A stretch of 40,665 nucleotides of DNA from Escherichia phage CharmingMan. Positions 17,461 through 18,982 of this stretch are shown here, piece after piece. The DNA lies in the sequence record PP925830.1; one strand, 5' to 3'. The position numbers were made by a program, and so were the translations under genes. The notes beneath the pieces were generated by a model. That model worked only from the letters and a program-made list of their open reading frames with translations, ran no database searches and was not told the DNA's origin. The stretch's first letter is position 1; each line of letters begins with the position of its first letter.

Positions 17461-18774
17461 ATGGATAAAGTTACATATCCAACAGGCGTCGAAAACCACG
17501 GTGGCACATTGCGCATCTGGTTTAATTTCAAAGGTAAGCGTGTCAGGGAGAGCCTCGGTGTCCCTGACACCGCTAAGAACAGGAAGATCGCCGGGGAACT
17601 GCGGACATCGGTATGTTTTGCCATCAGAACAGGCACATTTGAGTACGCGGCACAGTTTCCGGACTCCCCTAACCTCAAGACTTTTGGGGTGGGAAAGAAA
17701 GAAATTACAGTGTCAGAGCTTGCCGAAAAGTGGCTGGATCTGAAGAGAATGGAAATCTGCGCGAACGCACTCAACCGTTATGAGTCAGTCGCAAGGAATA
17801 TGGTGCCAAGGATCGGGGGTAATCGGCTGGTGTCGGCGGTGACTAAAGAGGAATTACTGTATATCAGGAAAGATTTACTGACCGGTCACCAGATGCCAAT
17901 GAAGGGGAAAGACCCGGCAAAGGGACGAAGTGTTGTCACCGTAAATTATTACATGACAACTATTGCCGGAATGTTTCAGTTTGCCGCAGATCACGGTTAC
18001 TTAGAGGCGAACCCATTCGACGGGATCAAGCCTCTTAAAAAAGCCAGGGCAGAGCCAGATCCGCTAACTCGTGACGAATTCATTCGCCTGATTGATGCAT
18101 GCCGGCATCAGCAGACGAAAAACCTGTGGTCACTTGCAGTATACACAGGGGTACGTCATGGGGAGCTGACCTCCCTGGCCTGGGAGGATGTCGATCTTGA
18201 AGCTGGAACAATAACAATCAGGCGTAATTATACAAAACTGGGTGAATTCACTCTACCGAAAACTGAGGCGAGTACTAACAGAGTGATACACCTCATCCAG
18301 CCTGCGATAAACGTCCTTAGGAATCAGGCGGAAATGACTAGGCTTGGAAAAAAGCATCAGATCGATGTTCAACTGCGCGAATACGGCAGAACTGAGAGCC
18401 ACAAGTGTACATTTGTTTTCAACCCTCAACTGGTCAGAAGATGTCAGCAGGTGGGGATCATCTACAAAGTCGACTCGATAGGTGATTTATGGGACGCGAC
18501 GATGAAGCGAGCAGGGATAAGGCACAGGAAAGCATATCAGTCGCGTCACACGTATGCATGCTGGTCACTGTCAGCTGGCGCTAACCCCAGCTTCATTGCC
18601 AGTCAGATGGGCCATGCGAGCGCCCAGATGGTCTTCAACGTATACGGTGCGTGGATGGCAGACAGCAGTAGTGAGCAGATCGCAATGCTGAATCAGAGGC
18701 TCGCGGATTTTGCCCCACAGATGCCCCAAAGCATACATAGCAGTGCCAGAGCATTATTGAAATCAGTAAGTTAG
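17461..18774 (+). CDS. int: Tyrosine integrase with N-terminal arm-binding domain
   Basis: GGAGG 5 nt upstream of ATG 17461; catalytic-domain motifs (RHGELTSLAWEDVD, HKCTFVF, RHTYACWSLSAGANPSFIASQMGHASAQMVFNVYGAW with Tyr); N-terminal DUF3596-like arm-binding segment. Confidence 0.9.
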   Translation: MDKVTYPTGVENHGGTLRIWFNFKGKRVRESLGVPDTAKNRKIAGELRTSVCFAIRTGTFEYAAQFPDSPNLKTFGVGKKEITVSELAEKWLDLKRMEICANALNRYESVARNMVPRIGGNRLVSAVTKEELLYIRKDLLTGHQMPMKGKDPAKGRSVVTVNYYMTTIAGMFQFAADHGYLEANPFDGIKPLKKARAEPDPLTRDEFIRLIDACRHQQTKNLWSLAVYTGVRHGELTSLAWEDVDLEAGTITIRRNYTKLGEFTLPKTEASTNRVIHLIQPAINVLRNQAEMTRLGKKHQIDVQLREYGRTESHKCTFVFNPQLVRRCQQVGIIYKVDSIGDLWDATMKRAGIRHRKAYQSRHTYACWSLSAGANPSFIASQMGHASAQMVFNVYGAWMADSSSEQIAMLNQRLADFAPQMPQSIHSSARALLKSVS

Positions 18775-18982
18775 TTAATAACGCCCGTCATTTCAACTGC
18801 GTGACGCGGCAATTTTAAAAATCACTAAAGAACGCCCAAGAGCATGTGTATTCTTTAGAATTATCAATCACATAAAATTCACTTCATATGAAAATCACCA
18901 AAGTTCATATGAGTAAACATGTCCCACCCATGCCCCAAACCGTCCTAAAAATCATTTTTTTGCCCCATCCATGCCCCATAGC
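18711..18982. repeat. attP-like region: three copies of a 20-22-bp repeat containing ATGCCCCA plus two 9-bp palindromic repeats TTCATATGA
   Basis: TGCCCCACAGATGCCCCAAAGC (18711-18732, inside the int 3' end), CCCACCCATGCCCCAAAC (18923-18940), TGCCCCATCCATGCCCCATAGC (18961-18982); TTCATATGA at 18883-18891 and 18904-18912. Core not identifiable without attB. Confidence 0.4.

Follow-up and report, generated by a model that had tools for sequence, protein, structure and literature searches.

Here, we provide comparative evidence that positions 18709-18980 of the genome of Escherichia phage CharmingMan (PP925830.1) very probably represent a complete lambda-type phage attachment site (attP) of about 270 bp, through which this lambdoid siphophage would integrate into the bacterial gene yecE. 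Positions are those of the window, i.e., the entire stretch of 40,665 nucleotides (nt) that was analyzed. The adjoining gene int encodes an integrase (Int) of the PF12167/IntBPP-1 type that is related to the integrase of phage phiP27, and six heptamers distributed over both sides of the crossover core are, in our interpretation, the arm-type sites of this enzyme. The initial annotation of this DNA had proposed an attP with arm-type sites around a core next to int, which is borne out by prophage junctions, conservation patterns and a DNA-level constraint in related phages.

Crossover core and bacterial target

All junctions, bacterial attachment sites (attB) and empty sites considered here derive from lysogens of related phages. 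The position of the core is demonstrated by two boundaries of homology. From the int side, the record of phiP27 (AJ298298) aligns to 17400-18803 of the window with 80.5% nt identity and ends at 18803, because the record itself ends at its annotated 11-bp attL (TTAACTGCGTG; window counterpart TCAACTGCGTG). In addition, 328 complete E. coli genomes carry an int homologue that matches 17461-18803 (about 82% nt identity) and is followed by the 3' part of yecE, which encodes a DUF72 protein. From the other side, phages phi80 and mEp237 align only from 18783 rightwards, and a phi80 pseudogene annotated as 'N-terminal fragment, DUF72' reaches into the start of this match. Correspondingly, yecD and a 5' fragment of yecE precede a match beginning at 18783 in 337 complete E. 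coli genomes. The two boundaries overlap by 21 bp (18783-18803).

Junctions on the int side keep the phage-specific ..GCCCGTCATGTTAACTGCGTG (including CATGT) and continue with bacterial GAGGGC.., and junctions on the yecE 5' side keep the bacterial ..GCCCGCCACTTTAACTGCGTG (including CACTT) and continue with phage ACGCGG... The sequence TAACTGCGTG is common to both kinds of junction, and the readings from both sides therefore place the exchange within it. Joining the bacterial halves restores an intact YecE N-terminus, MIYIGLPQWSHPKWVRLGITSLEEYARHFNCVEGNTT, and the rebuilt 190-bp yecE sequence is unbroken in 4903 of 5426 E. coli genomes. The same int-core-yecE junction is found in lysogens of Pseudescherichia, Citrobacter, Kluyvera and Enterobacter with closer integrases, and independent metagenome contigs show the same int-attP-dinI arrangement.

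By these comparisons, the crossover core is assigned to 18783-18809, 9 bp beyond the stop codon of int. It copies codons 26-33 of yecE in frame (AAC GCC CGT CAT TTC AAC TGC GTG, i.e., N A R H F N C V). The attB reads GCCCGCCAC-TTTAACTGC-GTGGAGGGC, the half-sites of which form an inverted repeat with 8 of 9 matching positions around the 9-bp centre TTTAACTGC. In the window, the reverse complement of the right core-type site, CCGCGTCAC, agrees with the left one at 6 of 9 positions. The initial annotation had considered the bacterial target not inferable; the comparison of related prophage junctions demonstrates the target gene of the relatives and identifies the 5' part of yecE, and no tRNA gene, as the predicted target of CharmingMan. 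ARAGORN found no tRNA gene in the whole window, in agreement with the earlier remark that no tRNA-like 3' end is evident, and a tRNA target is therefore rejected. The core lies inside the 190-bp AT-rich segment (18733-18922) that the initial annotation had proposed to search for it.

Another claim of the initial annotation, that the two palindromic 9-mers TTCATATGA in the middle of the region are candidate core-type sites, is contradicted by the same junctions. An arrangement in which these palindromes form the crossover core, with the ATGCCCCA repeats as arms around them, would fit their palindromic nature, their conservation among relatives and their location, with repeat 1 on one side and repeats 2 and 3 on the other. 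Nevertheless, it is extremely improbable, as both TTCATATGA copies lie together on the yecE 5' side in all lysogens examined, about 80-130 bp inside phage DNA. Bacterial and phage sequence meet at 18783-18803, with the palindromes located about 90-115 bp further to the right, and no bacterial sequence matches them.

Two further observations concern the junctions themselves. In E. coli Nissle 1917 (L006, 2493-3266), the annotation pipeline (PGAP) calls a hybrid yecE open reading frame (ORF) whose start lies on the phage side, within the 3' end of int, and the window likewise keeps the yecE frame to the left of the core (18753-18803), encoding ..NARHFNCV. We considered whether the phage supplies a replacement 5' end of yecE and rejected this, since YecE loses about 25 N-terminal residues and a canonical start codon is missing. 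Moreover, phi80 (L002, JX871397, 1426-2022), mEp237 (H4/H5) and E. coli XL10-Gold (H20) carry a scar composed of a yecE 5' fragment, the core, a P arm with heptamers and dinI, and scar carriers such as phi80 have unrelated integrases. The phi80-type scar represents an attL-like junction acquired from a yecE prophage of an ancestor, in agreement with the published idea of yecE-derived attB sequences inside prophages (PMC8112680).

Probable arm-type sites

A repeat search of the window returned one family of three 25-nt repeats (18708-18732, 18917-18941 and 18958-18982), the second and third of which are 72% and 84% identical to the first. The initial annotation had described two near-identical 22-mers with a third related copy, one copy inside the coding end of int and an AT-rich segment between the repeats. 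These descriptions were accurate: the 22-mers at 18711-32 and 18961-82 share 18 of 22 positions, repeat 1 lies within int (17461-18774), and the G+C content of 18733-18922 is 34% as compared to 51% in the whole window. Every 25-mer is a tandem of two TGYCCCA heptamers at 11-bp spacing, giving six heptamers in total, all on the + strand. The pattern TGYCCCA-N4-TGYCCCA (both strands, at most one mismatch) has three matches in the 40.7-kb window versus 0.09 expected, all three of them in the attP region, and three matches were reached in none of 100 shuffles. Six of the 17 single TGYCCCA heptamers of the window fall inside the 272 bp of the attP region.

Distances were counted from the centre of the overlap, set at 18796. 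The int side of the core holds a site resembling the consensus of the integration host factor (IHF) at -35 to -23 and an arm pair at -85 to -68. The other side comprises a 46-bp block (+17 to +62), an IHF-like site (+66 to +78) and the twin TTCATATGA (+87 to +116), followed by arm pairs at +124 to +141 and +165 to +182 and a weak IHF-like site at +154 to +166.

The heptamers inside int are constrained at the DNA level. Among 64 unique int sequences that are 80-100% identical, an invariant third base is seen in only 24 of the 133 four-fold-degenerate codons whose amino acid never changes. The third bases of the heptamer codons GCC, CCA and CCC, and of the preceding TTT, never vary in this set. 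The 3-nt spacer codon between the int-embedded heptamers occurs in six variants that encode six amino acids, and in phiP27 the motif changes only within TGYCCCA, giving A-to-V and P-to-S replacements. Invariant synonymous sites, a hypervariable spacer and the phiP27 replacements together demonstrate that the constraint acts on the DNA and not on the peptide.

Both pairs on the other side of the core are conserved in an alignment of 34 unique P arms. The P-arm loci were gathered by an exact pattern (18818-18844), which makes invariance within that stretch circular; the arm sites lie outside it. Beyond the outermost heptamer, similarity between phage groups is lost within a few bases (about 18979), and the heptamers thus mark the edge of a conserved module. 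The arms are present irrespective of whether dinI, tail-fibre remnants or ynaM is the next gene; they are part of the att/int module and not of dinI.

These findings also bear on the proposal that repeat 1 is kept for the C-terminal peptide of Int (..FAPxMPQ..) and that repeats 2 and 3 are unrelated regulatory sites, e.g., of dinI or for read-through. Repeat 1 does lie in coding sequence, and repeats 2 and 3 are located 30-90 bp upstream of the LexA-controlled dinI promoter. However, fixed four-fold third positions together with tolerated non-synonymous C-to-T changes in phiP27 are at odds with selection on a peptide, and the pair is non-coding, past the int stop codon, in Rac-like (43% Int identity), Erwinia, Citrobacter and Vreelandella (L160) relatives. 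Regulation of dinI is contradicted by P-arm pairs in two loci without dinI (L003, L007), and one and the same heptamer occurs on both sides of the core. We therefore regard it as highly unlikely.

The 11-bp-phased pair at the int 3' end extends to more distant integrases, such as those of Edwardsiella (72%), Yersinia (52%), a partial E. coli copy (L163; 61%) and Raoultella (41%). In the Edwardsiella, Yersinia and partial E. coli copies, the pair is followed by other sequence, without yecE. The Rac prophage of E. coli K-12 has TTTGCCCCCAATTTGCCCCA on the int side and three TGCCCC units about 110-160 bp inside its far end, in the same orientation. Even near the 3' ends of genes for integrases of 29-40% identity (L150-L192), 11-bp-phased pairs or triplets of related heptamers occur, namely RGCCCCA in Aeromonas, GTACCCA in Kistimonas, GTTCCCA (three units) in Stutzerimonas and Pseudomonas, and TGGCCCC in Shewanella. 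The criterion for these distant heptamers was loose and also gives spurious matches in unrelated loci, so that they are suggestive only; they hint at a co-evolution of arm motif and arm-binding domain. Taken together, the comparisons characterize the repeats as sites that are constrained at the DNA level and move with the int/core module, and support their assignment as six arm-type Int sites.

Alternatively, the heptamer pairs could be att-associated sites for another binder, i.e., the excisionase, a host factor or the core-binding domain of Int. Excisionases also bind tandem direct repeats, GCCC is common to the heptamer and the core-type half-sites, and the binding of Int to the heptamers is itself a prediction. 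We nonetheless consider another binder unlikely. The sites are found in both arms, spaced from the core much as in lambda, and the conserved module is bounded by them. Xis sites of known systems (lambda) are confined to one arm. Furthermore, the heptamer pairs are retained with PF12167 integrases from 94% down to about 41% identity, and the motif shifts (GTTCCCA, GTACCCA, RGCCCCA) in more distant ones.

Proposed organization of the attP

In the lambda-type attP that we propose, strand exchange would take place in the core at 18783-18809, composed of a left core-type site C (GCCCGTCAT), an overlap (TTCAACTGC) and a right core-type site C' (GTGACGCGG). As the core mimics yecE codons 26-33 (..ARHFNCV..), the phage would insert into yecE and split it. 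The six TGYCCCA heptamers, arranged in three tandem pairs with 11-bp phasing and one orientation, would serve as arm-type sites for the N-terminal domain of Int, with one pair forming a P'-like arm in the 3' end of int and two pairs forming a P-like arm on the opposite side of the core. Int would bridge arms and core, and bending proteins would fold the DNA into an intasome. Potential sites for bending proteins are the IHF-like sequences at 18761-73, 18862-74 and 18950-62, and the twin TTCATATGA might be used by the DUF1233 excisionase. We infer both the assignment of proteins to these sites and the exact cleavage positions.

Several points weigh against this interpretation. A look-up of the exact Int protein gave no match on record, and the literature search found no binding or recombination results for this phage or for any PF12167 integrase. 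With the GCCC shared by arm and core motifs, some heptamers could be contacted by the core-binding domain of Int. Matches to the IHF consensus with one mismatch occur at chance frequency across the window (35 versus 34 expected), and the IHF-like sites therefore rest on local clustering and partial conservation. Finally, at position 18794, inside the presumed overlap, the window departs from E. coli yecE and from the most closely related attP (L104), both of which carry T in place of C; because of this C, the identity to the E. coli attB is only 9 contiguous bp.

The last point could indicate that the attP is decayed or non-functional, with the T-to-C change at 18794 blocking productive recombination with TTT-type yecE, as the T of L104 and E. 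coli would suggest. Yet the window sequence TTCAACTGCGTG differs from yecE (..TTTAACTGCGTG..) by a single mismatch to both the E. coli and the Citrobacter-type host alleles, and this mismatch is synonymous in the yecE frame (TTC/TTT, Phe30). TTC alleles are present at bacterial-side junctions (L110, L120) as well as phage-side junctions (L103, L132, L136) of relatives. No other element of the site is disrupted, and the ORFs of int and xis have their full length. Decay of the site is thus very unlikely, and the C at 18794 may instead be an adaptation to the allele of the host.

This host is probably a Citrobacter-like enterobacterium, judging from the closest integrases and the TTC/non-E. coli yecE alleles at junctions. 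The best nt identity of an int gene in complete E. coli genomes is about 82.5%. By amino acid identity, the nearest integrases in a set of one-genome-per-species contigs are from Pseudescherichia (94%) and Citrobacter (92%, 90% and 86%), then Kluyvera and Enterobacter, and all are followed by the yecE 3' part. Bacterial-side junctions of close relatives in IMG/VR read GCCCGACACTTTAACTGCGTG, a non-E. coli yecE allele. The int gene of L104 is 98.6% identical to that of the window at the nt level. An IMG/VR provirus contig (L023) has an int of 98.0% nt identity at the very end of the contig.

Candidate accessory-factor sites

The features of the attP region and the adjoining genes are compiled in Table 1. 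Codons 18754-18771, which overlap the IHF-like site between the int-side arm pair and the core, are nearly invariant in the 64 unique int sequences, and this extends to the third, four-fold degenerate positions of TCA and GTA. At the position homologous to 18862-18874, strain KE40 has the perfect consensus AATCAAAGCGTTG. All three IHF-like sequences are candidates for IHF binding.

Table 1 Features in and around the proposed attP of phage CharmingMan (window positions)
Feature	Position	Strand	Description
Excisionase-like gene (recombination directionality factor)	17169-17405	+	Directly upstream of int; Pfam DUF1233 'putative excisionase' PF06806, E=8e-32
Tyrosine integrase, 437 amino acids	17461-18774	+	N-terminal arm-binding domain and catalytic domain
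Repeat 1	18708-18732	+	TTTTGCCCCACAGATGCCCCAAAGC
Int-side (P'-like) arm pair	18711-18728	+	TGCCCCA-cag-a-TGCCCCA, within the last int codons; core of repeat 1
IHF-consensus-like site (H'-like), candidate	18761-18773	+	AATCAGTAAGTTA; one mismatch to WATCAANNNNTTR; between int-side pair and core
Left core-type site C	18783-18791	+	GCCCGTCAT; resembles attB left half GCCCGCCAC; P-arm junction homology starts exactly at 18783
Overlap/crossover region (candidate cleavage span)	18792-18800	+	TTCAACTGC
Right core-type site C'	18801-18809	+	GTGACGCGG
Highly conserved block by the core, candidate accessory-factor region	18813-18858	+	46 bp
IHF-consensus-like site (H2-like), candidate	18862-18874	+	TATCAATCACATA; one mismatch to consensus
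Twin TTCATATGA repeats	18883-18912	+	Adjoin the inner arm pair; candidate excisionase/accessory sites
Repeat 2	18917-18941	+	ACATGTCCCACCCATGCCCCAAACC
Inner P-arm sites	18920-18937	+	TGTCCCA-N4-TGCCCCA; kept in all aligned P arms
Degenerate third unit of inner P-arm	18941-18947	+	CGTCCTA; intact TGYCCCA at this place in E. coli relatives
IHF-consensus-like site (H1-like), weak assignment	18950-18962	+	AATCATTTTTTTG; one mismatch; poorly conserved; between P-arm pairs
Repeat 3	18958-18982	+	TTTTGCCCCATCCATGCCCCATAGC
Outer P-arm pair, right-hand attP boundary	18961-18978	+	TGCCCCA-N4-TGCCCCA; in all 34 unique P arms
DinI-family ORF	19077-19343		Downstream of attP region; own sigma-70-like promoter 19012-19041

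The 46-bp block adjoining the core shows little or no variation in KE40, E2528, phi80 and Nissle and has one change in phiP27 (relatives derived from BLAST searches), and it is near-invariant across phages with about 20% divergence between their int genes. Within the block are an 8-bp inverted repeat, CTAAAGAA (18825-32) and TTCTTTAG (18851-58), and at 18830-36 the sequence AACGCCC, of which a first copy is located by the C site (18780-86). A similar sequence, GGCAAAAATCAC, adjoins the core of Rac.

The 9-bp palindromic repeats TTCATATGA are present, as first described, 21 bp apart from start to start (18883-18891 and 18904-18912), and can also be read as a 9-bp inverted repeat. The sequence CATATGAAAwTC...AAGTTCATATG is kept with variation over the 34 unique P arms. 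Both the twin TTCATATGA and the conserved block are probably sites for accessory factors, a role that the initial annotation had named for the palindromes as its other option. By analogy to lambda, in which X1/X2 lie beside P2, the twin TTCATATGA are the best candidate sites for the DUF1233 excisionase, because they adjoin the inner arm pair. Two further repeats, the 13-mer AAAATCAC[T/C]AAAG (18818, 18891) and TAAAAATCA (18816, 18946), were rejected as functional elements since their second copies are not conserved and relatives have AAAWTCGGYWAAG at the corresponding positions.

Integrase, excisionase and neighbouring genes

The arm-binding domain that the initial annotation had ascribed to the N-terminus of Int is confirmed by a match of residues 7-70 to PF12167 (Arm-DNA-bind_2; E=1.7e-24; 86 bits versus a cut-off of 22). 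Residues 202-395 match PF00589 (Phage_integrase; E=1e-15), which identifies the adjacent gene product as a tyrosine recombinase with catalytic domain. PF12167 is the domain of the IntBPP-1 subgroup (PMC8138268). A structure search found no solved structure for the PF12167 domain family. The DUF1233 protein encoded directly upstream of int shares 86-87% of its residues with the excisionases that phiP27 and the yecE prophage of Nissle encode; its identity to XisR of Rac is 29%.

On the other side of the attP, the dinI-like gene, immediately beyond the attachment site, has the appearance of a moron under SOS control. A LexA-box-like sequence (CTGT-N8-CCAG, 19018-19033) overlaps its promoter, and the phi80 annotation gives a predicted LexA site at the homologous place. 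In 18500-19500, the dinI promoter (19012-19041) was the only promoter-like site in our scan, and no terminator was found. An Rfam search at permissive thresholds gave no match within 18700-19000. Further downstream, a sub-threshold Rfam match on the - strand (19401-19440; CssrB 3' end, 32 bits versus a gathering score of 76) coincides with a GC-rich hairpin in the interval where dinI and the tail-fibre gene converge; this hairpin is most likely a bidirectional terminator. Past dinI, tail-fibre and tail genes follow on the opposite strand, and the window overall represents a lambdoid siphophage that has the Escherichia phages LMessi and Fraca among its relatives.

Comparison with known attachment sites

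In lambda, the attP is arranged in the order P'3-P'1, H', COC', H2, X/F, P2, H1, P1 and is acted on by Int, Xis and IHF, with X1/X2 beside P2. The site described here resembles it in several respects. The order xis, int, attP is the same, and the int 3' end abuts an arm with tandem arm-type sites and one IHF-like site. The overall length is about 270 bp as compared to about 240 bp in lambda, and inverted core-type sites surround a short overlap. As in lambda, the arm-type repeats are unlike the core-type sites, and the integrase has a separate N-terminal domain for arm binding. In contrast, this domain belongs to PF12167 and not to PF09003, and TGYCCCA is unrelated to the lambda arm motif and arranged in 11-bp-phased pairs, one of them inside the int coding sequence. 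The target lies within the protein-coding gene yecE, whereas lambda uses an intergenic site between gal and bio, and the excisionase is of the DUF1233 type instead of lambda Xis. The protein contacts proposed for CharmingMan are predicted from sequence.

A closer counterpart is phiP27, a Stx2e phage (AJ298298; int L01, xis L02). In addition to the nt identity across 17400-18803 mentioned above, both int genes have 437 codons, and the Xis proteins share 86% amino acid identity. Because the record holds phiP27 in its prophage form, its attP is split; once the two ends are rejoined, the core agrees in position and sequence, and all arm pairs are in the same positions. Most phiP27 heptamers read TGTCCCA, the remainder of the genome is different, and only the 11-bp attL and attR are annotated, without arm sites.

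Prophages of O145:H28 E. coli that encode Stx1a or Stx2a also occupy yecE and have a 21-bp att, which sequencing of excised circles confirmed (Nakamura et al. 2021, PMC8112680). As far as the accessible sections of that paper go, the att was defined by sequence identity only and arm-type sites were not described. The core defined here by junction homology (18783-18803) has the same length of 21 bp. The yecE relic in phi80 and mEp237 fits the yecE-derived 'attB-in-prophage' sequences reported in that study.

The most distant comparison is to Rac of K-12, which has IntR, XisR and an attB in ttcA. IntR is 43% identical to the CharmingMan integrase and has the same domain family, XisR is 29% identical to the CharmingMan excisionase, and Rac also targets the 5' end of a gene. 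It shares TGCCCC(A) units with 11-bp phasing in window orientation, both by the int 3' end and at the far end. Rac differs in its core and target and in a non-coding int-side pair, and it is a cryptic prophage.

Significance

The target gene and a short core of yecE phages are already present in the literature and in database annotation. Our literature search, which was incomplete in coverage, brought up no earlier description of the full extent of the attP, of the heptamer pairs or of their persistence as far as Rac; the same search returned nothing specific on arm-type sites of yecE phages, Rac or PF12167 integrases. The mechanism of the site is textbook lambda design and the element an ordinary one, and our understanding of how integrases work is unchanged. 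What the analysis does offer is a testable map of the full attachment site for a common group of enterobacterial prophages at yecE, including Shiga-toxin phages and the prophage of E. coli Nissle 1917. The limits of the attP (about 18709-18980) and the probable Int heptamers should help to delimit prophages and to design excision and integration assays, and possibly integration vectors.

Beyond the yecE phages, we lean towards the view that an 11-bp-phased pair of TGCCCCA-like heptamers marks the arm sites throughout the large PF12167 (IntBPP-1/Rac) group of integrases as a general signature. The pair is kept by the int 3' end, coding or non-coding, and in the far arm, with yecE, ttcA or a tRNA gene as target, and only its first three bases drift in distant lineages. 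If this holds, the heptamer pairs would be usable for automatic delimitation of attP, attL and attR in thousands of prophages, and arm recognition in this group would be nearly fixed while core specificity evolves freely.

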